A stretch of DNA of 64,000 bases from Azolla caroliniana (GCA_043228905.1 JBHGNT010000010.1:13950001-14014000); one strand, 5' to 3'; positions 2,574 to 59,314 are shown, counted from the first letter of the stretch. The notes: generated by a model from the sequence alone, not told the origin. Numbers and translations: made by a program.

Positions 2574-4044
2574 TTAAAGAAAATAAGGGTGGCTCTCCAA
2601 GCTCTCCCAATTGTCGCAGGGCATATAGAATTTCTCGGCATCCCACAGGATATAAAACGGATCAAAACCCTCTGCTTTGACATGGTTAGACGCATGGTCG
2701 GTGAAGGGACTGAACTCACAATGGTTATTGGTGGTGAAGTCCACAGTGGAAGAATCACAACTCCTGGGTCCATCCAGACAGCTTGTGACACCTAGCATAT
2801 GCATGTATGTATGTACGTATTTTGTAAGTGTGTCAGTATAAATTATTTATACGTGTGTAGGAATTGATTTTGTGTTTACCTGAATCATGATCAACAGTAA
2901 CAGAAGAGACAGAAGGGGTTGTGTCCTGTGTCATTGGTGGTGGTGGTGGCGGTGGCGGCGGCGGCTGGAGGATGGCAGACGCGTTATTTACCAGCTTGGG
3001 GTACTGAAGCCCATACAGGTAGCTGGCAGTGGCCACAGTCCTCCGGAACACATGGTTCATAACTGTACCGGAAGCAGCAGCAGCAGCAGCAGCGGTGGTG
3101 GTGGTGGTGAAAGCACCGGACGCTGGAGGCAATTGCTGTGATAGAACCAGAGCAGGAGCAGGAGCAGCAGCAGGAGCAGCAGTAGTGGGAGGGGAAGCTG
3201 GCGCTGAGTTATAGAATTCATGCATCTCTTGTTTAGGCATTAGAGCAGGTCCAGTATCGGAATTAGATGTGGTAAGCACAGAATCCCTCATCATTGCCAG
3301 CCCAGACCAGCAGTCAAAGCATCTACACGCCGATGACCCTCCAAGCTCATCCCCGGCATGGCTCCACAAAAGCAGATCAGATTCATCCTTTATACTACTA
3401 CTACTACTAGCCACCTCGTGGTCTGCAGCTGCAGCAGTCATGGCATGGGTGGCAGCGGTTAATCCACGACATGCACACGTGCATGTGCATGAGCAGGAGG
3501 CAGTGGTACCCATAATCCCTGGGGTGGTGCCAATATTTCGGAGATAGGTGAAGTAAGCAGGAAGGCAGTTTTCCATCTTGAACGTGATGTGGTTGTAGAA
3601 GAGGCGGCGATGATGATGATGATGCTTGCGAGGAGTGAAGGAGGAGGCGGCAGCAGCAGCGGCATCATGTTTCTCCTGCATGTTGTTATCGTAACTATAT
3701 TGATCATTATGGTTGGACAATATATTATTATTATCATGTGGGAAGGAAGAGGAAGAGGAAGAGGAGGAGGAGGAAGAAGATGAAGATGGAGGAGGAGGAA
3801 GATGGAGAGGTGGGGTGGAGGAGGAGGAGGAGGAGGAGGGGGAGGGGAGGTGTGGGTGGCGGAGGCGGTGCAGATGGTAGAAACGGCCGTCCTCCCCCTC
3901 CACCAAAAGCTGGACTTGGCAGCCGCACATGGAGGCCAGTTCATGAGCTTTCTTGAAGAGGCCCTTGCATCGTTTCGAAAATGTCTCCTTGCGGTCCTGC
4001 TCCTTCCGCCTCAGTTTGCTCGGGCATACCTTCCGCCGCCCCAT
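2574..4044 (-). CDS. MADS-box transcription factor, type I-like (no K-box); exons 4044-2880 and 2791-2574, ~460 aa
   Basis: The N-terminus MGRRKVCPSKLRRKEQDRKETFSKRCKGLFKKAHELASMCGCQVQLLV is a MADS/SRF domain. An 88-bp intron at 2879-2792 (GTAAAC...CTAG, phase 1) joins it in frame to ORF 2574-2804. The remainder is low-complexity. Confidence 0.88.
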
Positions 4045-4065
4045 ACCTACCACCACAGTCGTCGT

Positions 4066-4102
<37 letters not shown>
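4066..4102. repeat. (CTA)n microsatellite just upstream of the MADS start codon
   Basis: About 12 perfect CTA units. Confidence 0.95.
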
Positions 4103-4104
<2 letters not shown>

Positions 4105-4693
4105 ATAATAAAACCGACAAAACAAAGATCAATACATACAATAAATAACACACCTCCTCCTCCTCCTGTCGCCCAACCTTAAAAATCTCCTGCTCCTTCA
4201 CTCTTGTAAGTGTGCGTTTTTCCTTTCCCCTTCCTTGACTTTCTCTCGCTCTTCTCTTCTTTATTTATCTCTCCTCCCCCCTCCCTCCGTGCTTTTTTTC
4301 CTTTTGCTTCCTACTAAAATAGCTATTTCATCCACATCTATACATTATGTCCGACGATAAAAAGAAAACTTGTCATGTCATGCGTCAAACTAGCTAGCTT
4401 TTCGCGTTACAGCTGCCTGGTTGTGGGAGCACGTGCGTGTGTCTAAATTGTAATGAGTGAATTTATCCAAGTATCTGTATGTGTAATGTATGTATCAAAT
4501 CGGTCAGGGCATAATACAAGATGCATCTGAACAGATAAGAGTAAGGGGAACTAACAATGCTGGCTGTGAATCAAGTCACCACGCACTATAGATTTACACT
4601 ATTTCCATGCATAGTCTGTGCATACATTAGTTAGCCTCTCGTTTTATCAGCACTCTCACTTCCCCAAAAACCAACTGAAGAAAACTTGAGCAT

Positions 4694-4770
4694 GTGCCCT
4701 ATCTTCGTATGCAAATCAAGCATTTTCGTCTTGCCCGTGCCCTATCTTCGTATGCAAATCAAGCATTTTC
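4694..4770. repeat. 34-bp direct repeat with a 9-bp spacer in the MADS upstream region
   Basis: GTGCCCTATCTTCGTATGCAAATCAAGCATTTTC occurs at 4694-4727 and 4737-4770. Confidence 0.9.
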
Positions 4771-5959
4771 TCTACTACATGTGTTCCTCGTGAAATACAT
4801 TCAACATGTTGCATTTTCTCCTTATGTAATACCAAACGCCACTATCAGGGAGTGATAATCCATAGACACCTTCAAGAAACAATATAATATGTATCCTTTC
4901 GCTTCCTTCAAGATGTTTATTCATTATTGTGCAAAGAGAGTTGGTTTCCAGGATGTCAACCCAGGGCATAGATTCCTTGTATTCTGATCATGGTGATGAT
5001 CACAAAGTTCTTCAGAACAGAACTTTAATCTATTTTAAGACAATGATTTCTTGCAATGAGTTGAGTATTTCTTACTATAAGTGGATTGCAGGAAGTTGAT
5101 TGAAGGACTGTAATTTGGCATCTAGTACAATGGTTTATAGAGCAGACATAAAAGCCAGGTATACTGTATTATGTGGTTAACGTTGCGTAAGGAGGTGAAA
5201 CAGTGTCCAAAAAGCCAATCGAGGTTAGTATGTTCTAGACAGTTAACATATCATACATATTCTATTTATTCAACAATCCTTTCATGTCCATGACACAAAA
5301 ACAACGAAGAATTTATCAAATGCATGCAATAGATTCTCATATCTCATAAATGCAGAAGAAGAAACATAAATATAATGAAACCTTTGGTATCTCATTTCTT
5401 ATAATTTCTTATATTAAGCACCCAAGGGTCTTTGAAAAGAAGGGCAGACACCATGTGTGCTAATTCCAGGATAGCTAACAAAACTCGCTCAGACAAGTAT
5501 CTGGGAAGCTGTAATAAGAATGTGCCAAAGTTACTAGCAAGACCTTGGCTCATTCTTGAGAAAGGATGTTTTATTTTATCATGAGCTTAAATTAAAGTAA
5601 AGGTTTAAGTTTTATTCGAATCAATTATAGTGAAATCCAATTTGACAAGAAATCACAAAGGCATAAAAATAAAGTTCCCTGGAAAAGCAGAGTCATGCAT
5701 TTTGAGAAACGAAAACCATGATTCCATTGCTGGAACCCTATCGTTCCTCGAAAACTATCTGAAGATGCTGGAGCACAAATGGCATGCTAGATGTCACAAG
5801 CAACCACATCAAAGTCATTTTGGAAACAAACCAACCCTTTCTGATCCAAAACCATTCGTAAAAAGCCTACATGTGACATGTGGTAAGAGCAAAGTGAATT
5901 TGGAACCTCACATACCGTTTATTCAGACTCTTAAACATAGATTGTGTACTGATATCAGG

Positions 5960-7194
5960 CTACTTTCCCCATCTTGATAATATCAACAATCCAATGACAG
6001 AGAAACAGAGAGATGCAAATGTTACAACTACAACCAGAAATGCATAAATTTGTTTTGGCAATTTGAGGACTTCCTGTATTCGTTTTAGGCCTCTATCAAT
6101 AAGTGGAGCAAGGGCTGCAGCTCCAGCAACCCGGAACGGTCTCGTGACATTGTTCCCCGTCCACATCAATACCACAATCTGAACATAATAAGTAGAGACA
6201 AATGATGGGTTTATGAGATGGTATCAATAAATCCAACATAATGTGTATTGTGACATAGCTCTAATAAATCTGTGTAGTTAGCTAAAATATAGTAGTATAC
6301 ATGCACTTACTCCAAGTAGAGCCTGAATATTAGCAGCAGGGTTCTTGCCAGTGCTTTTCTCATAACCCAGAAACGCCAACACAAAGAATGTGGTGTAAGT
6401 TATACCATCAAAGAGACCGTAAGCCAGAATTGCTGCCAATCCCAGCTTAGCAACCTGTTCTTTCATCTTTGCAGCATTGCTCTGTATCCACACTGAGAAC
6501 CATTAATTCTACACATTACATACATCTTCACTGCACAACATCCCAAATATGAGCATATATATATACATGCTGGGTGAAATTTCCTACCATTTCAACACAC
6601 ACAGAGAGTACACCTAGTGTCTATATAGATAGATGTGTGTATACACTATTACTCTATGTGGATGCTACTAAAACTCCATTGGTCCTTCTTTTAAGTTTTT
6701 AGAGCAATTTATGTGTGTTTTTCTTCAATGATTCGGTGATTCCTGAACCATATATGCAAGGGTTCTGTGTATTTACACCACATGGATTACATGAAATTTG
6801 TTTTCTTTTGTACATCGAGTGTGAGTGGCGGAGGTGGAGGTGAGAAAAGAAAACCTGAAGCCCATTAACTTTCGTAAAGAAACTTTGGCGTTTCGTCTCC
6901 TGCAGATGTAATCCGAGAGAAGTTGAGGTTGATAAATTAGCATGAGTTTGAGGAAATGAGGGAAAAGAAATTTACCTGATACAAGTCTGGCTGGGTTGGG
7001 GAAATATATTCATCATCAGGTGCAGAGGAGGAGGAGGAAGAAGAAGATGCATATGGCCGAACAGTCAAGCGAGTACCAGGGAGGCGAACAGAGCAACGTC
7101 GATGATGGAGGCAGACTGGCAAGGAGGGATATTGAGGGGTGCGACTGTGTGAATTTGGTGTGTAGGTCAGCACTGGCAGCAGCCCCGTTGCCAT
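5960..7194 (-). CDS. Uncharacterised, probably plastid-targeted membrane protein; exons approx. 7194-6976, 6899-6855, 6481-6311, 6178-5960
   Basis: Ser/Arg/Pro-rich transit-peptide-like N-terminus and canonical GT-AG introns in phase 0. Hydrophobic core KLGLAAILAYGLFDGITYTTFFVLAF...ALLG|IVVLMWTGNNVTRPFRVAGAAALAP. The exon 3 acceptor is uncertain. Confidence 0.85.
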
Positions 7195-11600: not shown

Positions 11601-14600
11601 CGAATTGTCACCTTGTTGACAGGTTGAAGATCTTGAATGAATCGCAACGATCCATTCTTCTTTGGCACCATGAACCATCTATTAGAATAAGGAGTGTTCG
11701 ACGGTTCCAAAATTCCCATCCTCACCTTCTCCTTTAAGAGCTCGATCAGCTTCGGTAGGTGTGCTCTCGGAACCTGTATTAGTTTAAATTCCAAGGCACA
11801 TGTGGCACCGTGAAGATCACCATCGGTTCTACCATCCTTGGATTAGCACGTCCGATTTCTTGTGGGAAAAATGTGAAAGCCTTCCCATGTCTTTCAAGCA
11901 TTTCGCAGAACATTTGCTCCTCTTCAGGAAGGAGGAAATCCTCCCTTCCAACTCATAGCTTTCCCTTCGCCTCTTCAGTGAAGACGTGACCAATTGTATT
12001 TGGGTTCCTTAAGCTTGGATCTTTTGCAACTTCCTTCATCTTTTGCCAGCTATCTTCCGATAGTGGAACTGCAACTGGCTTGACCTTCCTATCCACGGTT
12101 TTATATTTTGTGTTGACTTCGGCTTCCTCTATCAAGATGCCTCGATGATATTCATCGATGATAGCATACATGTTGACGGAGTTAATCGAAATCACATGTT
12201 GATGGTGAGGATAGCTCAAGTCCATGACTTCCTCGATTTTGCCGATGGTGTCGTTAAATGAGGCTTCCTCCAGAATATAAGACACGAATTCTTCTTCTTC
12301 GATTATGCTTTCTTCTTTCAGCACCTCCTCGAAGTCTTGTATCAGACACTTTTCCTCCTTGTTGAGTGATCTTAGTTTGCATGCGCCGCTAGGTGTGACG
12401 CATGTTGCTTCTCTTTGCAATCCACGCACTCTGCTTCCTTGTGGGGACTTATGATTGCTCGGACTATTTGTGCCCCATACTTCAATAGTTCACTTTAAAA
12501 ATCTGAGGATTCACCTCCAAGGCTATCTCAGTTCCTTTCGTGATTAGCTCGCACCATTAGGAATTGAACAGATCTTTTACTATCAAGACTCTTGACGCGC
12601 ACGAAGGTTGCTCCATTATCGAACACCTTGGTCTCCATCCGGGACGATGTTATATACGGTTGTCCTAGGATGACAAGATGCGAAGCCGAGTCTTGCACGA
12701 AGAAGTGTTGATCAATCTCCACATCCCCGATCGTGACTTTAACGTTGGGGCAAGCTCCGTACAAGTCCTCCGTAGCCTTCGTCGCCGCTCGAATCTTCCA
12801 TCCGTGGTTTGTATTAATCGGCCATCTTCCTTTCTTGTAGAACTCGGTCAACATGAGGTTAATCTCCGAGCCATGGTCAATCAAGGCTACCACGGTTTCT
12901 TTCTTCTCCCTGATCTTCACCGGCTTCTACGTTGTCGCTCTTGCCCAATGAGGTCGAGAGTAATGGCTATCTGCCACCACTTCTTCTTCCTCCTCCTCTT
13001 CCAATCTTTCCATGGTTATGGCACTTGTTTTCACCTCCTCTTCATCAGATTGTTGCCGCTTCCTTTTAATAAGGTCCACAATAGTATCATGGAACTCCTT
13101 CTTCACGATCCCAAGCAGTTCTCTCAAAGTAAGGTCAACATGACTGTCTAAAACCTTCTCCTCAAGGATCTTCCGCAAGTCAGTTGTTTGTTCTATGTCC
13201 GATCTTAACTTGTAAGTCGGTGCCACTCGTTCTTTTCCTTTCTTCGTTGATTCTTCGACCTCGTTCTTTTCCTTGCTTCTCCTCAAAGCCTTCAGGTTGT
13301 TGCATGTAAATTTCTTCTTCTAGCTCCCCGTGCAGAAATGCGGTTTTGACATCCAACTGTTCAATCTCTAGGTCCAAACTGGCCGCAATGCTAAGAACAG
13401 TTCGAATGGATGTCATCTTCATGACTGGTGCGAATATTTCGTCAAAGTCGACACCCTTCTTCTGTTGGAAACCCTTCACCACTATGCGGGCTTTATACCT
13501 AGGCTTGTTGTCGACTTCTCCAGTCTTCACCTTGTAGACCCATTTATTCCTGAGTGCTCTCTTACCTTTCGACAGCTCTACTAAGTCGTAGGTGTAATTC
13601 ACGTGCAAGGGTTCCATCTCCTCTTGCATCACGCTCAGCCATTTATCTTTGCTCTTGTCGGCAATGGCTTCTTCATAGCACTCCGGTTCACCGTCATCAG
13701 TCAAGAGGACGTATTGATTGGCATATGTAATCGGTGCCTTCCTTTCTTTGAGTGGGTATCTTCGTCCACTCGTTGTTGGCTCCAGTTTGGATGTCTCTGC
13801 CAACTCTTCTCTCTGCTCGGGATTCTGTTCGTCAATCGGCATCTCTAGGTTGGATAACTCCAACTCATATTCATCAATTGACTTCAACAGTTCTACCGAC
13901 TCTGACTCATAGTCTGTCGGTCTTTCCGAGTCGACCGACTCAGATTTGGCTCTGTCAGCCATTTGTCTCCTTATAGCTATCGGTGACGACTCACTTGGCC
14001 TTGTAAAGATTCAAACTCTTGACACGACCATGTTATAATCTAGTATTATGAGTTAACCAAGATATCTAGTACATAGTTATGTATGTAATTGGTCCTTATT
14101 ATTTTGCTAGCATCATGTGCATAGTTGCTCCCTTGTAGTATTTACACTTGGCACATGCATACATACCTACATGCTCTATTGTAGATTCACATGTGTGCAA
14201 CAATTATGCATGCCATGTAGTATAAATAGAGGAGTTCACCTTGAAGGAATTCAAGGTGAACAACACCAGTTATGGAGTCTTTCCTTTAATACTATCTTCT
14301 TTCTTGTCCATTTGGTTATCTTCTTGCTTGTCTCTTGAGCTTATGATCCGTGACACTTTGTTCACCTTCCCATCCTCATAGCTCTTCCCCTCATAAGCCA
14401 TAGCTATGTCCGACTCAACTAGTGAGTTAGGCCAAATAATGGTAGCCTTACGACAACTACAACTTGAAAATGAAGCTCTTCGAAATTCTTTACAAGAACT
14501 TCAAGTCAGTACCTCCCTATCCTCACAACCCCCGAACCCTAGTCTCCCACAACAACCTAGCCTAGAGCCCGATCTTCTACCAACATCTAGCCTAGCTTCG

Positions 14601-17600
14601 TCACAGTTTCTTGAGCCTAAGGTTAGCCTCCCAGAAAAATTTGATGGAACGAGGTCGCGTTTCCGAGGGTTCATCAACCAAGTTCGACTTATCATTCGGC
14701 TACAACCTCAACGTTATGGAGATGGTCTTTGACAAGTCGGCCTTGTGGGCACCCTTCTCTCCGGTCCGGCCCAAGCTTGGTTTGCACCATTGGTAGAAAC
14801 CTCGTCACCTCTATTGGAGAACTTTCCCGCCTTCCTCGCCGAGTTAGAGGCCACATTTGGAGAGACGGACCGACGATGTACAACTCTTAACAAGATTTAT
14901 GCACTCGAACAAGGTTCGCGTGCAGCTTCGGTCTATGCTTTAGAATTTCAACAACTAGCATGTGACGTCAATTGGGATGATCAAGCTTTAGCTGATCACT
15001 TTCAACGCGGCCTTCAAAGCAATGTCAAGAATCTTCTCTTAAACTTTCCGAAGCCCACCTCGTTATCCCAAGTGATTTCACAAGCAATCCATTGTGACAA
15101 TCGTCTTTTCGAATTTCGCCAAGAAGAGCGCCGGACTTGGGTTCCACCTCATTCACTTCCACGCCACGCCCCGGTCATACAACCCCAGGCATCCTCACAC
15201 TCGCCTACTTTGGCAGATGCTCCTATCCCCATGGAAATTGATCAAGCCCGATTTTGGCCATTGACTGATGCTGAACGACAATTTCGGCGGGCTAATGGCT
15301 TGTGCATGTATTGTGGCGCCTCCGGTCATGTCGTTCGCCATTGTCCTAGGAGTACTCGCCCACAATTCCATCGAGCTAACGGACCCCAACATCCGGAAAA
15401 CGACATCATTCGATTGCAGTAGGAGCCATGTAACTGGACATCTCCCGTCGCCCACATTCTCTTGGTTCCATTGCCGGACCATCAGGCAATTTCACATTGG
15501 AGGTATGGCTTTCGTTTAACTCTAGTTCCATTCAGTCTGTTGCTTTACTTGATTCTGGGGCATCTTCTTGCTTCATCGACGTCGCATTTGCCCAAGCACA
15601 TGGCGTACCTATCGTTGGCCTCTCAAAACCTATTCCAGTTCAAGCCATCGACGGGTGCGTCCTCTCGTCAGGTGCAATTACTCAAGCTACAATCCCATTA
15701 GGGCTTCGGGTGGGCTCACACCAGGAGGAGCTCGCCTTTTACCTCATCGCATCTCCTCGATATCCGATTGTCTTAGGACTAACGTTGTCATGATATGGCA
15801 AGACTCGAACCCATGACCTTATACTACATGGGTCGAGCTCTTGACCATTAGACTATACATTGTAATGCATAGAATATTATTTTCATTTATGTTTTATTAT
15901 AGAAAATTGATGTATATTCCAGATTTCTCTGGAACATTCTAGAAACTTCAGGAGTATTCCTTAGAACACTATAAAAGGAGGCACAAGGCATTATTTCGAA
16001 CCAAATCGGTTCAACGCCAGTCTTAAGCCTCCTAGCTATTGTACATTTTCTTCACATAATATATATCTTTTCTTATCATCACTCTCTCTCTCTCTCTCGA
16101 TCTCTCTCTCCCTCCCTCTCACTCACTCTTTCCTTCTCTCGAGAGTTCTTCACCTCTCTTAGTACTAATACTTCTTTTAGTACTAATTCCTTCTCTGTCT
16201 TAGTACTATTCCTGACAGTTTGAACCGATTTGCCTACCTTCTATCTCTCTTATTTCCTACTAATATCTTATTCCTCTTTTCTTTCATCCCATGGCCACTG
16301 TTAGCACTTAAGAATATCAATATGTTTTCTCGGAATTTCAATGCTTGAAAGAGAAGTTCCATGCTTTGGAACAAGAAAACCAACGGTTGCTGGGGGATCT
16401 TCAGCAAATCTCCTTAGAAAAGCAGCAAACGCAACAACAACATGGGGAACTTGCGTTACGCGTGCAACAACTCGAAGCAACCATCGTAGCGATGCAACAA
16501 CAAGGGCCCAAAACACAAGGGATTCATAAAGAACCCAAGATTGGCCTTCCCACGAAGTTCGATGGAACGCGATCGCAGTTTAGAGGGTTCCTTAACCAGG
16601 TACGATTAGTTATTCAAATGCATCCTTCCCGGTATCCCACCGATGCATCACGAGTGGGTTTAGTAGGCACTTTGTTAAGTGGCTCAGCGTTGGCATGGTT
16701 CGCTCCACTATTAGAAAAGGAATCCCCGTTACTCAACAATTTTGAAGAGTTTCTAGGTGAGTTTAAAGCATGTTTCGGAGATACTGACAGCATCAGGACC
16801 GTAATCAACAAAATTCGGCGATTACGCCAAGGTGACCGTCCAGCCTCTGCATATGCTGCAGATTTTCACCTACTCGCCGCCGATATCCCTTGGGATGATC
16901 AAGCGTTGATGGAGCAATTCCGTTATGGTTTACGCAACGATGTCAAGGATTTACTCTTGACCTTCCCCGAAGAGCCAAAGTCCTTAGGAGAAGCAATTAG
17001 TCGCGCGGTGAGATGTGACAACCGCCTCTTTGAGCGACGTTCGAAACGACAACTACAGATGCCGAGGGCAAGATCAGAGCCCACCTACGCCTCAGTGGTA
17101 GCAAGACCTTTTCCGAGGGAGTCATATAATGCTCCTCCAACGAATACTCCGACTCCGATGGAGATTGACACTACACGTCGTTGAGGGCCATTATCCGAAG
17201 AAGAAAAGCAGTGACGCCGTACAAATCGACTATGTCTTTACTGCGGTGGACCAGGACATATTGCAATAAATTGCCCCCATAGGCCAAGAAGACAGGTAAA
17301 CCAAATAGTCGCTAGTTCTAATTGTACTAAACCCGAGCCTATTTCAGTAGGGATATCTGATAGTCCTAATAGTACGAATAGCCCAGATCTAGCAAACAGA
17401 TTTGATGTCCTTAGTCAGTTAGAAGAAGAGTTAAACGACTAAGTCCAGCCAAAATAGGAGCCGTTTGGTTGGACAACCCTAGATCTGTGCAACCCATTAG
17501 TGGTTCCATTCCCTCTAAGCAAGTTAGTGATGTGTTCGTAGCCCAAGTAATAGTTAGTACTAAAAGTACCCCTCCAGTACATGTCCTAGCACCCCTAGAT

Positions 17601-17773
17601 TCCGGAGCTAACTCTTGCTTTATGGATAAGAAATTTGCTCAAGCTCATAAGATATCCCTAAGAAAACTCTAGTGTCCAGCCTCTGTAGTAGTCATTGATG
17701 GACGTCCCATTGCTTCCGGAAATATCATAGAAGAGTTAGAGCCCATTAATATTGTCCTAGATAACTTAGCATG

Positions 17774-20700
17774 TGTTGGGAGACAGGTCCCTCCGGATGG
17801 GAAGGGAGAAGAACAGTGCCGATGAACAAACTCGGCCGAGGCCGAAACGGTACGAGGAGCACCCGGCTACGGAGAGCCGGATGATACAGGCCCGGTATGA
17901 ACCGGATGAGGAGTACCCGGCTACCGAGAGCCGGATGATACAGGCCCGGTATGAACCGGATGAGGAGTGCCCGGCTACGGAGAGCCGGATGCCGGATGAG
18001 GAGTACCTGGCTACGGAGAGTCGGATGGTGCAGACCCGGTATGAACCGGAGGAAGAGACATATTCGTAAATATGTTTCTGAGAGCCCATTCTGGCTATAT
18101 TTGTAAATAGCCGAAAAGTCATATTAGTATAAATATGACTTAGGGCAAAACTAATTGTGTTGTTGTTACTTTTCTTGTTGGTGCAAGAAGAAGAGAGAGC
18201 ACGTAATAGTGTACAGAGTGAGAGAGAGAGAGAAAGAGGTCGTTGCCTCTGTTGTAACCGTCGCCTACGGCGAAGATCGTGAGCACGAGGTCGTTGCCTT
18301 TGTGAACTCACTGTTTTGTACATTCCAACTTAGTGATAGTTTGCAGCCTGTGGGCTGCCGTAGTTTTTCCCTCTTTGGGTTTTCCACATAAACCTCCTGT
18401 GTAGTGTGTGTATATCTTCCTCTCCTTTGTGTCGTGTTTTACTTCCCGTTTTCTGTGTATCATTCTACGCTCGGTTGTGGCCGAGCGTCGTGCATAAGGA
18501 ACGTTAGGTCCCCGTCAAGTGGTATCAGAGCAAAATCGACACAGAAAATGGACAAATCATTTGGCGGCATGTTCAAGCTCACCGGCTCCAACTATTCAGT
18601 ATGGAAGTCGAAGATGAGGGACATGCTCGTTGTTAAAGACCTTTGGCTGCCGGTTCAGTTCGGGGACAAGAGACCGGACAAAATCGACGCCGCGATATGG
18701 GAGGTGATGCACATGAAGACAACGGCGTACATACGGTGCTTCATCAACATGAGCCTATACAACAACTTCAATGAAGAGAGCAAGGCTGATGAGCTCTGGG
18801 AGAAGATCGGCATAATGTTCCAAAACAAAAATGTTGTTAATCAGGTTTCGGTATTCCGGAAGCTAGTAAGACTCCGGTACCAAGATGGCTCCAGCATGGC
18901 GGAGCACATGAATGCCTTCCAGGGGCTGATACACCAGGCAACTTCATTGGAAGTACCTCTCGTGGATGAGGTACTTGCGCTACTTCTGCTCGGTTCCCTC
19001 CCGGATAGCTGGGAGACGTTGGTTGTCACTTTGGGCAACACCGGGCCGGAAGGAAAACGGTTATCCCTAGCAAGAGTAAAGTCGAGCTTGCTAGATGAGG
19101 AGGCGCGTCGGAAAGACAAAGATACGAGCTCCGACTCCAAAGCGCTTCTTACCAAATCGGAACGTGGAAGACATAGAAACCGTAGTCCCCAGAACCGGGA
19201 GAAGTCGGGGACACGGTCAAAGTCAAGGGGGAGGCCTACTTGCTTCTATTGCGGCAAGCCGGGACACTTCCAAAAGAACTGTCGGCATTTCCGTAAAGAC
19301 AAGGAAACCGACGGTACCGATTCGAAGCAAACCTCAGACCAGAACGGTAAAGACCGAAAGGGGCCGGACCGGAAGGGAACGACGGCAATCGCGGCAAGTG
19401 AAGAAGAGTTGATGCTCATCACCGAGGAGTGTGAGATAAACCTTGCCGGCGACGAGATGACCTGGGTGGTAGACTCCGGAGCATCGTTCCACCTTACCCC
19501 AGACCGGAAATGCTTCTCATCCTACTCAGCCGGTGACCACGGTTGTGTCCAGATGGGGAATGAAGGTACATGCCGGATTATCGGCATAGGAGACGTGTGG
19601 CTGTCAACACCAACCGGATGCAAGTTGCTGCTGAAGGACACGTTCCGGAAGTTCGTCTGAACCTGATATCAGCCGGTCGGCTAGATGATGAAGGCTACAC
19701 AGGTAGCATCCGGAATGGTGTCATGAAGTTCAGCAAAGGGAGCCTGATTGTGGCTCGGGCCCGGAAGGTAAACACACTGTACCTGATGAATGCCCGGTTA
19801 TGTCCGGAAGAAGTGAACGTGGCATCCGACACTGCCGGTGAGCTGTGGCACAAGAGGCTGTGTCATATGAGTGAGAAGGGGATGAAGAGGCTTGCAGACG
19901 ACAACCTTATTCCAGTGAAGAACGTGCACTTAGAGAGGTGCACTGATTGTCTGGCCGGTAAGCAGAACCGGACCTCCTTCCGACCAAGGCCACCGATGAG
20001 ACGTAATGCACCACTGGAGTTGGTGCATACGGATGTGTGTCAAGTAGACACGAAGTCACATGCCGGAGCGCAGTACTTCGTAACGTTCATAGATGACCAC
20101 AGCCGGAAGCTGTGGGCCACACCGTTGAAGACAAAGGATCAGGTGTTATCCGTCTTCAAAGAGCTCCACGCGAGAGTGGAAAGAGAAACCGGCCGGAAGC
20201 TGAAGGCGGTTCGAGCAAATAACGGAGGAGAGTACCGGGGGCAGTTCGAGGAGTACTGCCGCTCGAAGGGAATCCGACTCGAATTTACCGTGCCGAAGAC
20301 GCCGGAACTAAACGGACTGGCCGAGAGGATGAACCGAGAGGATGAACCGGCACTGTCGACGGCGACATACGTGATAAATAGATCACCCTCAGTACCCTTG
20401 GACGGAGACACGCCACACAGAGTGTGGACCGGTAAGGAAGTATCCTACCGGCATCTGAAGGTGTTCGGGTGTCTCGCTTACGTGCATGTAGCTAAGGACC
20501 GGAGAGGTAAGTTAGATCCAAAGACCCGGCCATGCATATTCCTCGGTTACGGTGACGATGAGTTCGGCTACTGAGTGTGGGACCCGGTCGACAAGAAGGT
20601 ATTCCGGAGTCAAGATATTATCTTCATGGAGGACAAGACGCTCGCCGACTGGGAGTCGGAGAAGAAGATAATGAACTCCGAGTCGACCGGTAAGGATAGA

Positions 20701-23244
20701 CTCTACGATGAGCAGACCCAACCAGCAAGAGACCAGTTAGCACTCGAGGAACCAGCCGGTTACGGTGAGGATACCGAACCGACAGAAGAAGAAGAAGAGG
20801 AAGCTGAGACCGGAACCGGCCAAGACCCCGAATCGGATTCGGATGAAGAGCACATGGATGAGCCGGTCACCGAAGCCCAAAGACGGAGATATCCTCTCAG
20901 AGAGAGAAGGCCCCCCCGGAGATTTCCGGATGCAGAGCATGTTCTGCTGACCGATGAGGGGGAGCCGGAAAGCTTCGAAGAAATGAAGGAAGACACCTAC
21001 ATGGGAACCATACATACGAATTGGTGGACCTGCCGAAAGGAAAGCGGGCACTCCGAAACAAGTGGGTGTACAAGTTGAAACCGGGAGATGCCGGCAACCC
21101 TCCGAGATACAAAGCAAGGATCGTGGTGAAGGGGTTCCAGTAGAAGAAGGGCGTGGACTTCGACGAGATATTTGCCCCTGTAGTAAAGATGACCTCCATC
21201 CGGACGGTGTTGAGTATAGCAGCAAGCATGGACCTTGAGGTAGAGCAGCTGGACATGAAGACGGCATTCCTTCACGGCGACCTTGAAGAAGAGATCTACA
21301 TGCAGCAACCGGAAGGATTTGTGGAGAAAGGGAAGGAGCACCTGGTATGCCGGTTGAAGAAGAGCCTGTACGGAATTGAAGCAGGCTCCCCGGCAATGGT
21401 ACCGGAAGTTCGACTCCTTCATGACCGATCAAGGGTACCACAAGACACAGGCCGATCACTGTGTGTTTGTGAAGAAGTTCGAAGGAGGCGACTTCTTAAT
21501 ACTCCTCCTGTACGTAGATGACATGTTGATCGTCGGACGTGACCAAGTCAAAATACGGATGCTGAAGAAGGCTCTCAACCGGACCTTCTCAATGAAAGAC
21601 TTGGGTCCGGCAAGACAGATGTTGGGGATGCACATCATTCGGGACCGGTTAAAGAAGCAACTATGGCTGTCACAGGAGAAGTATGTGACAAAGGTGCTTC
21701 ACCGGTTCAACATGTCAGAAGCGAAACCTTTCGGATCGACACTTCCGGCAAACTACAGGCTATCCGGCAAGCAAAGCCCGAAGACGAAAGCAGAGAAGGC
21801 GGATATGATGAAGATTCCATATGCCTCTGCCGTCGGGAGCTTGATGTATGCTATGGTGTGTACCCGACCGGATATAGGATACGCAGTCGGAGTGGTGAGC
21901 CGGTTCATGAGTAATCCCGGCAAGGAGCATTGGAACGCGGTCAAATGGATACTCCGGTATTTGAAGGGCACTTCAAATATGTGTCTCCGATTCGGCTCCG
22001 GAAAACCTCAACTGGACGGTTTCACCGATTCGGACATGTCGGCTGATGTGGATACCAGCCGGTCTACATCCGGGTATGTGATGACATATGCAGGGGGAGC
22101 TGTTTCGTGGCAGTCGAGGCTGCAGAAGACGGTTGCATTGTCAACCACAGAGGCGGAGTACATGGCGGCTGTGGAAGCCGGCAAGGAAATTTTATGGATG
22201 AAGGACTTCATTGGAGAGCTCGGTATACGGCAAGAGGAATACCGACTCTACTGCGACAGTCAAAGTGCCATCCACCTTGCTAAAAATGCGGCCTACCATT
22301 CCCGGACGAAGCATATCCAGCGGAGGTATCACTGGATCCGGGAAAGAGTAGATGACCAGGAGTTCGCACTGACGAAGATCCACACGGACGAGAACGGGTC
22401 AGATATGCTGACCAAAGTGTTGACACCCGACAAGCTGGATGCATGCCGGAAGAGAATCGGACTGGAAAGACACCCCATGCCGGAGTGAAGGGGGAGTTTG
22501 TTGGGAGACAGGTCCCTCCGGATGGGAAGGGAGAAGAATAGTGCCGACGAACAAACTCGGTCGAGGCCGAAACGGTACGAGGAGCACCCGGCTACGGAGA
22601 GCCGGATGATACAGGCCCGGTATGAACCGGATGAGGAGTACCCGGCTACCGAGAGCCGGATGATACAGGCCCGGTATGAACCGGATGAGGAGTACCCGGC
22701 TACCGAGAGCCGGATGCCGGATGAGGAGTACCTGGCTACGGAGAGCCGGATGGTGCAGACCCGGTATGAACCGGAGGAAGAGACATATTCGTAAATATGT
22801 TTCTGAGAGCCCATTGTGGCTATATTTGTAAATAGCCGAAAAGTCATATTAGTATAAATATGACTTAGGGCAAAACTAATTGTGTTGTTGTTACTTTTCT
22901 TGTTGGTGCAAGAAGAAGAGAGAGCACGTAATAGTGTACAGAGTGAGAGAGAGAGAGAGAAAGAGGTCGTTGCCTCTGTTGTAACCGTCGCCTGCGGCGA
23001 AGATCGTGAGCACGAGGTCGTTGCCTTTGTGAACTCACTGTTTTGTACATTCCAACTTAGTGATAGTTTGCAGCCTGTGGGCAGCCGTGGTTTTTCCCTC
23101 TTTGGGTTTTCCACGTAAACCTCCTATGTAGTGTGTGTATATCTTCCTCTCCTTTGTGTCGTGTTTTACTTCCCGTTTTCTGTGTATCATTCTACGCTCG
23201 GTTGAGGCCGAGCGTCGTGCATAAGGAACGTTAGGTCCCCGTCA
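17774..23244 (+). mobile_element. Full-length but mutated Ty1/Copia element D nested in the protease of C; LTRs 17774-18517 and 22499-23244
   Basis: LTRs of ~745 bp with about 13 substitutions and TSD GCATG on both sides. PBS TGGTATCAGAGC at 18520-18531, PPT GAAGGGGGAG. The gag-PR-IN-RT-RNaseH region 18548-22488 has stops, frameshifts and small deletions. Confidence 0.97.
17845..18055. repeat. 54-bp tandem repeat in U3 of the element D LTR (also at 22570-22780)
   Basis: CCGGTATGAACCGGATGAGGAGTACCCGGCTACGGAGAGCCGGATGATACAGGC, about 4 copies. Confidence 0.9.
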
Positions 23245-23685
23245 GCATGTGTAGTATCATTTGATATTATTAGTATCCCAGAACATCCCATAGTTTTAGG
23301 ATTACCGTGGTTCGAGTTACATAACCCAAACATAGATTGGAGAACAAGAGAAATCCGGTGTCGACAAACCCAAGGGTCAACTCAGAAGATGGCAACCATT
23401 TCGCTACGTCAGTTGCGTAAAGAAGGGCACAAGGTGGAAATGTTCCTCTTTGCAATATCAATAAACCCCTCCAACACCACTAAAGAAGGATCCACCGTTC
23501 AACTTCCCGAGAAATATTGTCATCACGCCGATGTGTTCGATAAAGTACAAGCCAACACACTTCCTCATCATCAACCGTACGATTGCCCCATCGATTTACA
23601 GCCGGGAAAAGAGCCGCCATGGGGACCGATCTACAATTTGTAACCAACCGAGCTGGAAGTCCTTCGGGCCTATATAGGGGAGAAT

Positions 23686-26502
23686 TTGGAAAATGGTTTC
23701 ATCCGGCATTCGAAATCTCCAGCCGGCGCGCCCATTTTCTTCGTCAAGAAAAAGGATGGATCGCTTCGTCTTGTTGTAGATTATCGTGACCTGAATAAGG
23801 TTACAATCAGGAATATGTATGCTCTTCCCCTTATCTCAAGTCTTTTAGAACGGATCAATGGTGCCAGGTTCTTCACGAAGATCGACTTACGGGGAGCATA
23901 TAACCTTGTACGGATCCGACCAGGAGACGAATGGAAGACCGCGTTTCGCACCAGATATGGGCACTTCGAGTATACGGTCATGCCGTTCGGCCTCACTAAT
24001 GCACCAACAGTCTTCCAGCACATGGCTAATGATATATTCCGAGATCTATTGGATGATTGTTTGATCATCTATTTGGATGATCTACTGGTTTATTCAAAGA
24101 CCCAAGAAGAACATGATTCTCATGTACTATTAGTACTAAAACGACTTCGAGAACATGGTCTGTATGCAAAGCTGGAAAAATGTAGTTTCGGGTGCAACCA
24201 AGTGGAATTTCTCGGCTACATCATTTCGTCAGAAGGCATCTCCATGGACCCAGCTAAGGTCAAAACGGTGGTAGAATGGCAGACTCCACGTTCGGTGCAG
24301 GATGTGCAATGCTTCCTAGGCTTTGCCAATTTTTACCGGAAGTTCATACAAGATTACTCAAAGATCGTTCTACCTCTCACACAACTTACCAGGAAGGGAC
24401 AACCGTTCATTTGGTCTGAAGAAATGGACGTGCCTTTCGAGAGTCTTAAAAAGGCATTTACATCGGCTCCAATTCTAGCTCATGTCGATCCGGAAAAACC
24501 ATTTATTATCGAAGCTGACGCATCGGATTTTGCATTGGGGAGCATTCTGTCACAACAGGGGAATGATGAGAAGCTACATCCTGTGGCTTTTCACTCCCGC
24601 AAGTTTGACGCCACCGAAATCAACTACGAAATTCATGATAAGGAGCTATTGGCAATAGTGGATTCTTTTATGCAATGGAGGCATTTTTTGGAGGGATCCT
24701 CTCATCCGGTCACCGTATTTAGTGACCACAAGAACCTTGCCTACTTTCAGGATGCTCGTGTGTTGAATCGACGTCAAGCTCGGTGGGCCCACTTCCTCAC
24801 GCGTTTCAACTTCAAAATTACATATCGTCCGGGGAAGCACCAAGGGAAGGCAGATGCATTATCACGACGTTCGTATCTAGCACCCCGTCCTGGCGAGCCA
24901 GCTTTCGATAACCAAAAACAAGTCATCTTGGGACCGGCACGACTAGAAGCAACAAAGATCTTTGACATGCCCATGGATTCCCGCGTTATCGATACCATAT
25001 GCGAAGACTTGAAGACAGATGCATTCGCCCAAGCTATACTAGCACAAATTGATCCCTCTCGAGCCTCGTGTTCACAATCGCAACCACCAGGTACGGACTA
25101 TCGGCAATTCAAATACCATGATGGATTACTCTTCTTTAAAGAACTTTTGTATCTTCCTAATGGTTTTTGCCGCCTTCAAGTAGTACAAAACTGTCATGAC
25201 ACATATACAACTGGGCATTTTGGTAGTACTAAAACACTACATTTAGTACAACGATCATTCTGGTGGCCCTGTATGCAACAATTTGTCGAGGATTTTGTTC
25301 GGATTTGTGATACATGCTGCAGAGCAAAAATGCCAAGGCATCATCCATATGGTTTATTAGAACCATTACCAATTCCAAGCAAGCTGTGGCAATCCATTGC
25401 TCTAGACTTCATCACAGATCTTCCAGTCTCTAAGGGGTTCAATGCGATTCTAACGGTGGTCGATCGATACACAAAGATGGCTCATTTCTTGCCATGTACT
25501 AAGGAGATCTCCAGTGAAGACACTGCCGAAATTGTCATGCGTGAAGTATGTCGGCATCATGGACTTCCCGATAGTATCATCAGCGACCGTGGACCCCAGT
25601 TCGTGTCAAAATTCTGGAAGCACCTTTTTAACATGCTCAAGGTCACTTGTAACCTCTCCTCCAGCTACCACCCACAAACCGACGGCCAAGCTGAACGAAC
25701 CAATCAAACGCTGGAGCAGTATCTGGGGTGCTTTCTCAGCTATCATCAGGATGACTGGGCAGATATTCTCCACTTCGCCGAATTTGCCTATAACAACTCT
25801 ATCCACGCAACCATGAAAGTTACGCCATTTTATGCTTATACAGGATGTCACCCCCGGTGGTGTGTACTTAAAACCCCAGAGGTGTCCACAAATCCTTGCG
25901 CAGAGGATCGTTTGGAGAGGTTACGCAAGATACAAGCGGATTTATCTACTCATCTCCAACAAGCTCAACAAACACACAAGGTTTATGCGGATCGTCATCG
26001 ACTCCCATCTAGTTTTAACATTGGAGATCGGGTATGGCTACTCCGACGACACATCAGCACTACTCGCCCATGCGAGAAGTTGGATTATCGACGATTAGGT
26101 CCTTTCCGTATTATCGGAAAGATTAATGATGTCTCTTTTTGTCTTGATCTACCTCCACAACTTCGGATACATCCGGTGTTTCATAGTTCTCTCCTCGAAC
26201 CCTATCAAGAAAGCACCATCCTAGGACGTATTACACAACCTCCACCCCCGATCGAGCTTGAAGATGGTCCTGAGTACGAAGTTGCCACCATCCTTGATTC
26301 CAAGCTTGTTCGCAACAAGCTCTACTATCTAGTCGACTGGCTAGGATATAGTCCCAGCGAGCGTACTTGGGAACCGATAGAGAATGTCACCAATGCTCGT
26401 GTTCTTCTTGAAGACTTCCATCGTCAATATCCAGCCAAACCGGGTCCTCAATCCAAAACGACTCGTTACACTAGTCGTTTTAAAGGGGGGATAGTGTCAT
26501 GA
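23686..26502 (+). CDS. Pol region of element C (RT-RNaseH-integrase-chromodomain), 938-aa open stretch
   Basis: YLDD, DASDFALG, HHCC zinc finger, DDE core, GPF motif and chromodomain YEV..IL..YYLVDWLGY..TWEP. In-frame stops upstream make the element defective. Confidence 0.9.
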   Translation: MENGFIRHSKSPAGAPIFFVKKKDGSLRLVVDYRDLNKVTIRNMYALPLISSLLERINGARFFTKIDLRGAYNLVRIRPGDEWKTAFRTRYGHFEYTVMPFGLTNAPTVFQHMANDIFRDLLDDCLIIYLDDLLVYSKTQEEHDSHVLLVLKRLREHGLYAKLEKCSFGCNQVEFLGYIISSEGISMDPAKVKTVVEWQTPRSVQDVQCFLGFANFYRKFIQDYSKIVLPLTQLTRKGQPFIWSEEMDVPFESLKKAFTSAPILAHVDPEKPFIIEADASDFALGSILSQQGNDEKLHPVAFHSRKFDATEINYEIHDKELLAIVDSFMQWRHFLEGSSHPVTVFSDHKNLAYFQDARVLNRRQARWAHFLTRFNFKITYRPGKHQGKADALSRRSYLAPRPGEPAFDNQKQVILGPARLEATKIFDMPMDSRVIDTICEDLKTDAFAQAILAQIDPSRASCSQSQPPGTDYRQFKYHDGLLFFKELLYLPNGFCRLQVVQNCHDTYTTGHFGSTKTLHLVQRSFWWPCMQQFVEDFVRICDTCCRAKMPRHHPYGLLEPLPIPSKLWQSIALDFITDLPVSKGFNAILTVVDRYTKMAHFLPCTKEISSEDTAEIVMREVCRHHGLPDSIISDRGPQFVSKFWKHLFNMLKVTCNLSSSYHPQTDGQAERTNQTLEQYLGCFLSYHQDDWADILHFAEFAYNNSIHATMKVTPFYAYTGCHPRWCVLKTPEVSTNPCAEDRLERLRKIQADLSTHLQQAQQTHKVYADRHRLPSSFNIGDRVWLLRRHISTTRPCEKLDYRRLGPFRIIGKINDVSFCLDLPPQLRIHPVFHSSLLEPYQESTILGRITQPPPPIELEDGPEYEVATILDSKLVRNKLYYLVDWLGYSPSERTWEPIENVTNARVLLEDFHRQYPAKPGPQSKTTRYTSRFKGGIVS

Positions 26503-29500
26503 TATGGCAAGACTCGAACCCATGACCTTATACTACATGGGTCGAGCTCTTGACCATTAGACTATACATTGTAATACATAGAATATTATTTTCATTTATG
26601 TTTTATTATAGAAAATTGATGTATATTCTAGATTTCTCTGGAACATTCTAGAAACTTCAGGAGTATTCCTTAGAACACTATAAAAGGAGGCACAAGGCAT
26701 TATTTCGAACCAAATCGGTTCAACGCCAGTCTAGTACAATCTAGTACGCATCAAACCGGGGGATGAATGGAAAACCGCATTTCGAACACGGTATGGGCAT
26801 TTCGAATACAAGGTAATGCCTTTTGGTCTTACTAATGCTCCCGTAGTTTTTCAACATATGATGAACGATATATTTCGGGAATATCTTTATCTTTTTGTTG
26901 TCATTTACCTCGATGATATTCTCATTTTCTCGCCAAACATGGAGGAGCACACTCGCCAAGTCCGATTAGTTCTTGCCAAACTTCGCGAGCATGGCCTTTA
27001 TGCCAAAGGCGAGAAATGCGAGTTCGACCGTACCTCGATCGAATTTCTGGGCTACATCATCTCGCCCACTGGCATCACCATGGATATGAAGAAGGTCTCT
27101 GTCATTTAGGCGTGGGCGACTCCAAGGCAACTTAAAGATGTGCAATCCTTCCTCGGCTTCGCGAATTTTTACCGTCGCTTCAATAAGGGGTTTTCCACCC
27201 TAGCACAACCTCTTATCACTCTCACCCATAAAGGCACTCCATTTTTATGGACCTCGGAGGCGCAAAATGCGTTCGACTCACTCAAACACGCATTCATCAC
27301 TGCCCCGGTGCTGCTACATGCCGACCCCACAAAACCCTTCCAAGTCGAAACCGATGCCTCTGACTTTGCCATTGGCACCATCTTATCCCAGGCAGATGAC
27401 AACAACCTAATGCACCCAGTGGCTTACTATTCCCGAAAATTTACGGCATCCGAAATCAATTATCCCATTTACGACAAGGAGCTTGCTGCTATCATTGTTG
27501 CCTTTGAAGAATGGCGACCCTACTTGGCCGGCGCACAACATCGTGTCCAAGTAGTCGTTGATCATAAAAATTTAGTTTATTTTTCCACCACTCGTACTTT
27601 GAATCAAAGGCAGGCCCGTTGGTCGACATTTCTCGCCGATTACGATTTTGAGATCGTATTTCGACCTAGTGGCCAACATGGGAAGGTTGATGCCCTTTCT
27701 CGCCGAGCTGACCTTGCACTCTGCCCTGGGGATGCTGCTTATGCTCAACAATCTAGACGTTTGTTGAAACCCGACCAATTGCATCTTTTTGCCACTTGTA
27801 TGTTGCAGGATGATTCTTTACTCCAACAAATCACTGATGCATCCAAGACCGATGTGTTCGCCAACGAGATTCGAGATAGTCTACAAAACCCCTCCAAGGT
27901 GACCAAAAGGAAGGATCTTGACACCTTCACCATACAAGAGGGTTTGTTGTTAAGAGATCATCTCTTATACGTCCAAGAGGGCCCATGTTGCACCCGGGTG
28001 TTGCGGGAATGCCACGATGACCCACTTGCAGGTCATTTCGGGGTCGCGAAAACCCTCGAGCTAATCTCTCGGGGGTATTGGTGGCCACAACCATGGAAGT
28101 TGATCAAAGAATACATAAAGAGTTGTGAGGTTTGTGCTCGCTCCAAAACCATTCATCATCGGCCATACGGCTTACTACATCCGCTTCCATGTCCTCGTCG
28201 TCCTTGGGCCTCTATCTCTATGGACCTGATAACTGATCTACCCTTGGTCAATAACTATGACTCGGTGTTGGTCGTTGTCGATCAGTTTACGAAGATGGCT
28301 CACTTCACTCCATGCTCCAAAACCATTTCCGAAGAAGGAATGGTGCATCTACTACTCAACAATGTGGTATGCTTGCATGGACTACCCGATGATGTCATCT
28401 CGGATCGCGGACCCCAGTTTGTCTCTCACTTTTGGCAGCGCCTGCTACAAACTTTAGGTATCTTTGTCAAGTTGTCCTCTGCTTATCACCCCCAAATTGA
28501 CAGGCAAACGGAGCGTGTCAACCAAATCCTTGAGCAGTATCTTCGATGCTCGGTTAGTTACCAACAAGGTGATTGGGTCAACTTACTTTCGCTCGTGGAA
28601 TTCGCCTATAATAATTCTCTCCATGCATCGACTAGCGTCACTCCCTTCTTTGCCAACTATGGTTTACATCCTCGCTTCAACATTTCCCTTCCTACCACTT
28701 CCGTGAACCCTTCGGCGGAGGATCATGCCCGCATTTTGGAAGAACTACATCATGATTTATCCTTCGAGCTTAGTCTTGCTAGTGAACGATACAAGAAGCA
28801 GGCTGATCGCCATTGATCTTCCACTCCACACTTTGTCATTGGAGACATGGTCTGGTTGTTACGTTGACACATCTCTACTACTCCTCCATGTGCGAAACTT
28901 GATTACAAGAAGTTGGGACCATTCCGTATCATCGAGTGCATCAATCCCGTCGCCTTCCGGCTCGCCCTTCGATCCCACTTCCGGATTCACGATGTTTTTC
29001 ATGTCTCCCTCCTCGAACCCCATTATGTTTCACAACTCCCAGGACGTCAGGCCCCACCACCACCACTTGTGCAATTGACGACAGGTGAGGAATACGAGGT
29101 CGACCAAATCCTTGACTCGCATTGGCACCATCGACACTTGCAATACCTCGTCCTATGGAGGGGTTACCCCATGTCTGAGGCCACGTGGGAACCATCGGCA
29201 AATTTACAAAATGCCCCAGAGGTCGTCCAAGATTTTCATCACCGATATCCCCACAAACCAGCGGCCGATATGGGAAGGCGACGTAGGAGGGGGGATAATG
29301 TCAAGATTCGAACTCTTGACACGACCATGTTATAATCTAGTATTATGAGTTAACCAAGATATCTAGTACATAGTTATGTATGTAATTAATCCTTATTATT
29401 TTGCTAGCATCATGTGCATAATTGCTGCCTTGTAGTATTTACACTTGGCACATGCATACATACCTACATGCTCTATTGTAGATTCACATGCGTGCAACAA

Positions 29501-30612
29501 TTATGCATGCCATGTAGTATAAATAGAGGAGTTCACCTTGAAGGAATTCAAGGTGAACAACACCAGTTATGGAGTCTTTCCTTTAATACTATCTTCTTTC
29601 TTGTCCATTTGGTTATCTTCTTGCTTGTCTCTTGACCTTATGATCCGTGACAGGCCTTAAGTTGATGGTAGTCGAGGTTGACTAGGGAGTCGGTTCCGAC
29701 TTCTGTTGCTTCCAGTCTTCAATTGTCTTGTCTTCTAGAAAAACTACATCCCGACTTCTCACTACCTTCTTGTCGACTAGGTCCCATAGCCTGTAGCCGA
29801 ACTCATCTTCTGAGTATCCCATGAATATGCATGCTTTCGACTTGCTGTCGAGCTTTGATCTCTGATCCTTTGGTACATGCATATACGCTAAACATCCAAA
29901 CACCCTCAGGTGTTGGTAGGAGACATCCTTCCCTGTCCACATCCTTTGTGGGACATCACCCTTTAATGGCACTGAGGGAGACCTGTTGATCAGATAAACA
30001 GTTGTGTAGAACGCCTCAACCCAATAGGATTTTGGCAATTTCGCATGAGCGAGCATGCTCCTTACTCTCTCCATGATCGTTCGATTCATCCTCTCTACAA
30101 GCTCGTTCAACTCTGGGGTCTTTGGTACTGTGTATTTGATTCGAATACCTTGGCATTTGCAGTATTCTTCGAACTGCCCTTTGTATTCGCCACTGTTGTT
30201 GGTTCGGACAACCTTCAGTTTTTGACCCGACTCTCTTTCAGTTCTTGCCTGGAATTCCTTGAAAACCGACAGTACTTGATCCTTTGACTTCAGTACGAAG
30301 GCCCATGTTTTCCGATTGTAGTTGTCAATAAACGTTACAAAGTACTGTCCTCCTCGATGCGATGGAGGATCCACATAGCACACATCCATGTGCACTAGTT
30401 CCAGTGCAGCTTCTCTTCTCCTCGGTGGTCTCGTGTGGAATGTCGTCCTGTTCTACTTTTCGGCTAAGCAGTCGACACACTTCTCCAGGTGAACTCCCTT
30501 GATTTCTGGTAGAAGTTTCTGGTCGGCTAACAGGTGCATTCCCTTCTCACTCATGTGGCCTAGCCTCTTATGCCATATCTCCCCAGCCGAGTCGGCTGCC
30601 ATGTTTACTTAC

Positions 30613-58679: not shown

Positions 58680-59314
58680 TGTTGTGAAGATTTTCAACAA
58701 CGGTGTGAAAATAAGATGGAACGGAGAAAATCGAGAAGCTACAATGTGCACACGAATGAATGGGGTGATGGTTACACTTGTACATTAGCATGTTGTAAAT
58801 ATGAATGAAATGAGAACCCCTAAGGCCTAGTAGCATTTTCTTGCATACCAAGGAGTGCAAGTAGGGTTTGAACCTTACACCTCCAAGTTAAGACACAATT
58901 GACTTACCATTAAGCTAAGTTGTTACTTGTACTTTTATCATTGTATTTTTCACATGTAAATGCTCATACATGAGAGCTTGAATGAGTGACATGGTCATCA
59001 TGCATCACATGCGATGCATGAGCACCAAATGGCAATCATGCATTGCATGCATCTCATGGATTGTATGCATGTCTTACACCCTCACATGCATCATATGCAT
59101 GGGGGCATCTATACAAGAAAGAAAGGAAGGGAAAAAGGGGGGTGATCAATCTATGCATCAATCAAGCTATGTATTGAATCAACATCTTAATATTAAAAAA
59201 CCTATTTATCTTATTTGTGACTTGTCTAGTTTCTCAACATTGATGTCAAGGGTTCAAACCCGGAAGTGGAATTTCCATCCATCTATCTATCTATCTTAAA
59301 CACTTCCTCAATTC

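Follow-up and report, generated by a model that had tools for sequence, protein, structure and literature searches.

Pol III promoters within LTRs have been described in non-autonomous TRIMs, where they transcribe the element (PMC10886601), and in foamy viruses, where they make miRNAs (PMC3993851, PMC7693620). Cassandra (like Ajax) has an internal Pol III promoter in the LTR of a plant LTR retroelement, but this promoter is 5S-derived (A, IE and C boxes), and the element is non-autonomous and transcribed from 5' to 3' LTR (PMC10886601, PMC10946416). Helenus (TRIMp3; Kojima 2024, PMC10886601), which has a member in Selaginella, carries a tRNA-derived sequence in both LTRs, with conserved box A and box B in a segment that is not a functional tRNA; in the portions of that paper available to us, Helenus elements are short, non-coding and tRNA-primed, their boxes lie in sense orientation (Helenus-1_SMo) and are proposed to transcribe the element, and their autonomous partners must use Pol II. 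Foamy viruses are autonomous and have A/B-box Pol III units with hairpins in the LTR (in the bovine virus, in U3), with their own terminators and proven small RNAs (PMC3993851, PMC7693620). Outside transposons, the boxes that bind the same factors serve as host boundary elements, namely as tDNA/TFIIIC barriers in yeast and as tRNA/MIR insulators in animals; barriers of TFIIIB/TFIIIC are established in yeast, and the review consulted, as far as it was available, gives the barrier for yeast and animals only (PMC9540200).

We analyzed a 64,000-nucleotide stretch of Azolla caroliniana DNA (the window), which contains an LTR retrotransposon, element C, whose 5' LTR (TGTCA...TGACA, 432 bp; 15786-16217, plus strand) and 3' LTR (26495-26732, plus strand; truncated after R) are 99.2% identical over 238 nt. 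The element has a gag ORF with Retrotrans_gag and Ty3_capsid domains (16312-17184, plus strand), in which reading runs on with stops, a pol ORF (23644-26502, plus strand) that encodes RT, RNase H, integrase and a chromodomain, and a polypurine tract (PPT) with spacer (26482-26494, plus strand). The domain order is that of Ty3/gypsy elements with a C-terminal chromodomain, and in the translation we found by eye the aromatic cage residues Y, W and Y, at what we take to be the cage positions. The primer-binding site (PBS; 16220-16232, plus strand), 2 nt past the 5' LTR, is a 13-nt perfect inverted match to a putative self-primer in R (16002-16014, plus strand), as in the self-priming PBSs defined by Neumann et al. 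(10 bp or more of complementarity to the 5' LTR, placed 0-5 bp behind the LTR; PMC6317226), who give Tcn1, of mosses and club-mosses, as the only self-priming group among plant chromoviruses. Thus, element C shares with the Tcn1 clade (Tf1/Sushi group) the RT-RH-INT-chromodomain order, the aromatic cage and self-priming, and its LTR of ~430 bp compares with 440 bp in SM-Tcn1; a tRNA-derived segment in U3 is not mentioned in the available portions of these sources (PMC6317226, PMC2864245). Judged by these sequence features, element C is a self-priming Tcn1-type chromovirus; the integrase tree described below contained no named Tcn1 member.

Element C is inserted in the protease region of another chromovirus, D, and itself carries a nested Copia element (17774-23244, plus strand); therefore, this copy is disrupted. 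Chromovirus D spans 14002-29653; its target-site duplication measures 5 bp and its self-priming PBS 11 nt, and a single deletion cut the 3' LTR of element C and removed the protease-to-RT region of D. Elsewhere in the window, an intron-less minus-strand ORF of 410 codons (2833-4065) encodes a MADS (SRF-TF) domain, for which one search at a cutoff of E 1e-10 yielded no homologue of the ORF.

On the minus strand, the outer edge of U3 in element C bears an A box (15855-15845, tRNA positions 8-19) and a B box (15811-15802, tRNA positions 52-61; position 62 is T, not C), at precisely the coordinates given in the initial annotation. As it also stated, both boxes are identical in the 3' LTR (A, 26564-26554; B, 26520-26511; cassette 26564-26511, minus strand), where the first 70+ bases are the same. 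For the tRNA numbering and for the A-box consensus and its invariant letters, we followed the motifs quoted by Kojima and otherwise what we take to be common usage. The claimed distance of 44 nt is from start to start; from T8 to G53 it is 45 nt, compared to 43-57 nt (mode 44-45) in 34 real tRNAs, and the A and B boxes thus stand at the spacing of a plant type-2 Pol III unit. When reversed, the outer 70 bases of element C correspond to tRNA positions 8-72 with a canonical A-to-B spacing and a tRNA-like variable loop, and numbering from T8 gives a gapless fit to a standard tRNA up to position 61. The order of elements in U3 is the outward-pointing cassette, a minus-strand TATA-like tract, a GAA/TTC repeat of four alternating units (15932-15949), which we take to be heat-shock-element-like, and an inward-pointing Pol II TATA box (15970-15976, plus strand), assigned by its position. 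An alternating GAA/TTC array is also found in L002, a sister of D from outside the window (4260-4350), between its cassette and its Pol II TATA box.

This arrangement resembles that of Helenus in that boxes are present in both LTRs and the segment is not a functional tRNA, but element C differs in coding for gag and pol, in being self-priming with a Pol II TATA box, and in having its boxes antisense at the outer edge of the LTR (compare PMC10886601). The initial annotation had named Cassandra as the analogue; this holds for the presence of a Pol III promoter in the LTR, but the promoter of Cassandra is of 5S type, whereas Rfam gave no 5S match in element C and its boxes are of tRNA type, such that Helenus is closer. 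Foamy viruses share with element C the A/B boxes and hairpins in the LTR of an autonomous element, but in element C the LTR has no terminator and an RNA is hypothetical. The antisense boxes of element C cannot make genomic RNA, and since an outward antisense promoter is unfit to transcribe the element, they suggest that transposons put host Pol III factors to a different use. In the literature that we covered, which included portions of PMC2864245, PMC13578239 and PMC10946416 but few subscription papers and Repbase reports, we found no account of tRNA boxes placed antisense in U3 of a coding plant LTR element, and the available text of Kojima 2024 (PMC10886601) does not describe such an arrangement. 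According to Kojima, likeness to part of a tRNA is seen in "not a few" Repbase LTRs (PMC10886601), and therefore similar cases may be present there without a description.

To judge the likeness to tRNA, we scored the A+B pair with a profile of 28 phage and bacterial tRNAs from which those chosen by likeness to the query had been taken out; a first profile (31.6 bits) was discarded, its score being inflated by training tRNAs that had been picked in that way. The pair in element C scored 22.0 bits, which is within the range of real tRNAs (for a profile that is phage and bacterial, not plant). In simulated 64-kb windows, the best score averaged 15.4 bits and 22.1 was reached once in 100, and in simulated 120-nt LTR heads 19.4 bits was reached in 0 of 20,000. 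In contrast, the B box alone was at chance level (3 matches compared to 0.85 expected, with at least 3 in 9 of 100 shuffles). Thus, the A+B pair is beyond chance, unlike the B box alone. BLAST against phage and plasmid records gave only exact matches of 18-19 nt in the stretch from the variable loop to the T arm, in 10 phage records and 1 plasmid, each insignificant on its own (E 2-7). Three of the phage records annotate a tRNA at the match and one has the match between two annotated tRNAs, itself uncalled; six Lactococcus records have no annotation at the match (ARAGORN, applied to one of them, made no call), and the plasmid match is a tRNA-Asp, such that all matches with a call are tRNAs.

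The check with a tRNA caller proposed by the initial annotation came out negative: neither ARAGORN nor Rfam called a tRNA anywhere in the window, the two cassettes included, and a cloverleaf is absent. Relaxed settings of ARAGORN yielded only low-threshold, inconsistent calls. Among viral and genome contigs, pattern scans found 4 matches, 3 of which lie at real tRNA genes and none of which had a pol match; exact scans for the LTR head gave zero matches, and E. coli genomes had no match. Nevertheless, the sequence, spacing and antisense orientation support the proposal of a tRNA-derived segment that points outward, and the outer segment of U3 is very probably of tRNA origin; it would have been captured from a tRNA gene or a tRNA-derived SINE.

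The cassette also recurs in other LTR families of the window, which the initial annotation did not report. The five best profile sites in the window are all antisense in LTRs: one in E (58917), two in C and two in D2. The E cassette (58865-58917, minus strand), at 24.7 bits the best in the window, lies in an LTR-like repeat of ~1 kb (58680-about 59676) that is followed by a PBS of tRNA-Trp type at 59683 (type according to the supplement of PMC10886601), and 59 nt of it match a phage tRNA at 78.7% (E 0.01). Since this repeat is unrelated to the others and has a tRNA-Trp-type PBS, an independent capture is likely; its partner LTR is outside the window. The E repeat has a second B-box-like site on the plus strand at 59252. 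In D2, the two LTR heads (51006-51071, minus strand, and 49786-49721) carry antisense A/B cassettes of 19.4 and 15.9 bits. D2 (49721-51449) is a complete non-autonomous element of 1.73 kb that is related to family D. It has a target-site duplication of 5 bp, a self-priming PBS, antisense boxes in both LTR heads, internal 53-bp tandem repeats and a chromodomain remnant; it is non-coding-like, as Helenus is, but is larger than Helenus elements at 1.73 kb. The LTR head of family D (29299-29365, minus strand; 10.8 bits) has an antisense B core (29313) in the loop of a terminal hairpin and a weak A-like motif (29365), the A box being weak in this family, and the 5' LTR of D is decayed (4.7 bits). 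Overall, we scored 18 LTRs or LTR-like repeats in the window: six of the seven from C, D, D2 and E reached at least 10.8 bits antisense, and the remaining 11 had at most 9.2 bits on either strand.

We then turned to the LTR heads of chromoviruses in metagenome and viral contigs, using the 49 (of 86 loci) in which the PPT-TG junction could be placed and excluding the rest. An antisense B core was present in two of these 49 heads, that of L007, from the same family as C (18.8 bits), and that of L002 (10.1 bits), while the other 47 had at most 0.8 bits antisense. L007 is 81% identical to C in amino acids, and its A box is different yet matches the consensus. A distant chromovirus head, L032 (5355-5475), has A/B boxes on the sense strand (16.7 bits). 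The B core sits in a stem arm in C, in a loop in D and D2, and in a small hairpin in L002, and the folds of the D2, E and L002 cassettes are not significant; thus, the families have in common the sequence of the boxes, together with their spacing and orientation, and not the RNA shape. In a quick integrase tree, C with L007 and D with L002 fall on separate branches, and L001 and L012, which lack a cassette, fall near D, such that two changes are needed; a single gain with losses may also account for the distribution, since tree rows known as proteins only have no defined cassette status. Thus, the cassette is a real, non-chance and lineage-restricted feature that occurs in three LTR families and in each of them lies antisense within U3.

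We examined variation across copies of the element C family, which is abundant (3971-6394 contigs per run on 533 nt) and part of which occurs in runs labelled as six organisms. The main analysis used four DNA runs with four organism labels from two studies (31 rows; 790-2517 contigs each, at least 80% alike to element C); contig depth is not copy number, and we took conservation from variants, not from depth. RNA-labelled runs were excluded, as contigs give neither strand nor ends. This analysis covers 26516-26579 and reports no substitutions within ~30 nt of the ends of the stretch (known variants at 26581-26582 are missing from it), such that it assesses B-box positions 52-56, and positions 57-61 rest on the 40 of 132 rows listed in the 533-nt analysis, none of which falls in 26495-26531 and 18 of which fall in the remaining LTR. 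Averages computed for the B box and the 5' arm were discarded, since they score 26504-26515, which this analysis does not cover, as invariant.

Within the A box, position 9 varied between A and G (41-81%), position 11 between T and C (1-21%), position 16 between T and C (0-11%), and position 12 had all three alternative bases. Minor shares averaged 15% at such degenerate positions and 12% over the adjoining 15 nt of U3, compared to 1% at positions 8, 10, 14, 18 and 19, of which 8, 10 and 14 lie outside the hairpin described below. Subfamilies that break position 8, 10 or 14 were found in loose-end rows of 1, 10, 13 and 19 contigs, among the 48 of 1090 rows listed. Since the permutation p was 0.056 for all 11 positions and 0.11 for the 7 unpaired ones, conservation of the A box is suggestive, not proof. 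Within B-box positions 52-56, only the CpG at position 56 varied (C56T, 5-10%), although in C the conservation of the B box is inseparable from that of a hairpin stem and of the nearby LTR end. The initial annotation had held that boxes no more conserved than neighbouring U3 would speak against it; on the sequence side this is not what we found, since the boxes vary less than neighbouring U3, but with a borderline p and a confounded B box. We consider it fairly probable that the boxes are kept by selection for Pol III factors.

Signals outside the boxes agree in part with a Pol III unit. In plant tRNA genes, the position of TATA-like sequences peaks near -35 and a CAA occurs at -7 to -3 of the tRNA start (PMC3082873, available portions). 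Element C has a TATA-like tract (15901-15892, minus strand), also present in L007, at -39 to -30 from pseudo-tRNA position 1, which is a candidate TFIIIB site; this evidence is weak since the region is AT-rich. Its CAA lies 5-7 nt before the A box at pseudo-positions 1-3, rather than at -7 to -3. The short minus-strand CAA block (26569-26575; 15860-15866) varies little, has variable flanks, and is possibly a start-site element. In the cassette-bearing LTRs, T4 is absent between the B box and the LTR edge, and the first T4 lies 36-250 nt past the edge (36 nt in the 3' LTR of element C; none within 300 nt in one D LTR). With no T4 inside the LTR, 5' LTRs and solo LTRs would therefore give no defined RNA.

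The imperfect hairpin claimed in the initial annotation does overlap both boxes, but it is larger than described there, a rod of ~22 bp and 54 nt with an 11-nt loop (15795-15848), in which bases following the B box are paired to the 3' end of the A box. Its z is about -5 on either strand, and 0 of 200 shuffles were as stable. Six of the 11 loop positions are listed as variable, and no variant is listed at 17 of the 22 positions of the 3' arm; since this arm has no promoter role yet is mostly invariant, the hairpin itself is constrained. A variant of the bulged base, present at 2-32% across runs, would complete a 4-bp D stem, but tRNA position 12 varies without its partner and therefore the D stem is not maintained. 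At the paired base 26552, substitutions or deletions account for up to ~15% of depth, and we saw no compensatory double changes in the hairpin among contig variants. Terminal hairpins with an inverted copy of the LTR end head many LTRs (L001, L002, D, D2; 58680-58700), with or without a B box.

We considered several other accounts of the cassette. If the segment did come from a tRNA or SINE, selection might now act on the rod hairpin, for plus-strand priming, strand transfer or RNA 3'-end structure, with the boxes as passengers. The stability of the rod, its variable loop and bulge next to a 3' arm mostly without variants, and the terminal hairpins of LTRs that lack boxes (L001) all speak for this idea. 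However, A-box letters 8, 10 and 14, which lie outside the stem, stay constant among variable neighbours, families that fold differently retain the B core, and the boxes of the unrelated E LTR are not part of any significant fold. In addition, the paired base 26552 does change, and no compensatory double change was seen. Thus, we find this account doubtful, although it is the strongest of the alternatives. We regard as less likely still that the cassette is a working Pol III gene. Its product from the 3' LTR would be an antisense RNA of ~115-120 nt, with a PPT-complementary stretch between two hairpins and a T4 end, and could act as a small-RNA precursor or as a silencing decoy or copy-number brake, like the dumbbell RNAs of foamy viruses. 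Indeed, foamy viruses produce dumbbell pri-miRNAs from U3 by Pol III (PMC3993851, PMC7693620), and 26575-26452 has a dumbbell fold (z -4.1), the second hairpin of which, just upstream of the PPT (26453-26485; z -3.2 to -3.9), contains the first minus-strand T4 (26458-26455) in its 3' arm. Against this, that hairpin overlaps the last codons of pol and lacks significance in D, in L002 and in L007 (z +0.5), the fold changes from one family to another, and with the terminator outside the LTR, half of the cassettes and all solo LTRs are without it.

Two further accounts seem to us highly improbable. The boxes might turn the LTR into a mobile landing pad for Ty3-like integrases, which seek out Pol III start sites, those of the element's own family included, but upstream of the A box all 7 LTRs with a cassette in the window are uninterrupted, nested insertions are located in coding regions, and the 48 of 1090 loose-end rows listed show no common insertion junction upstream of the A box. 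Alternatively, a hairpin with TCGA-containing arms might match the degenerate boxes by chance, as the silence of Rfam and ARAGORN, the insignificance of the B box alone and the one simulated window in 100 that reached 22.1 bits would allow; this is largely refuted by the canonical spacing and tRNA-like variable loop, and by cassettes in three families in the same orientation that are absent from 47 of 49 other heads.

The reading that we prefer, at a probability of roughly 0.4, is that element C carries an inverted tRNA-derived segment that has lost its cloverleaf and kept its boxes, which would serve as a TFIIIC/TFIIIB site that keeps the Pol II promoter open. Since the LTR has no terminator and the RNA fold is family-specific, a site that works at the DNA level is likelier than an RNA product, and we tentatively put forward such a DNA-level role as the reason for which the boxes were retained. 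TFIIIC would bind the A and B boxes, and TFIIIB would sit on the TATA-like tract, ~70 bp upstream of the Pol II TATA box, in a back-to-back arrangement. Heterochromatin is the reported target of chromodomain integrases (PMC7466625, available portions), and the resulting barrier or open chromatin might limit silencing of an element that its chromodomain steers there; an outward Pol III transcript, if any, would be a by-product. The proposed effect is the same as that of the yeast and animal barriers, which use the same factor-binding boxes, but here the site is carried by a transposon at its own promoter (compare PMC9540200). It is a bolder and rather unlikely extension that tRNA promoters were captured more than once by unrelated coding LTR retrotransposons of this plant lineage, which would have fixed them in reverse at the outer margin of U3 as their own TFIIIC/TFIIIB insulator, an anti-silencing device that would shield the Pol II promoter from heterochromatin and be the first tDNA-type barrier in plants.

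The family is very abundant in several related species and, if this reading is true, each insertion and each solo LTR would seed a TFIIIC site. The family would then provide a natural high-copy test of tDNA-type barriers in plants, as well as a test of how elements that seek out heterochromatin stay transcribable.
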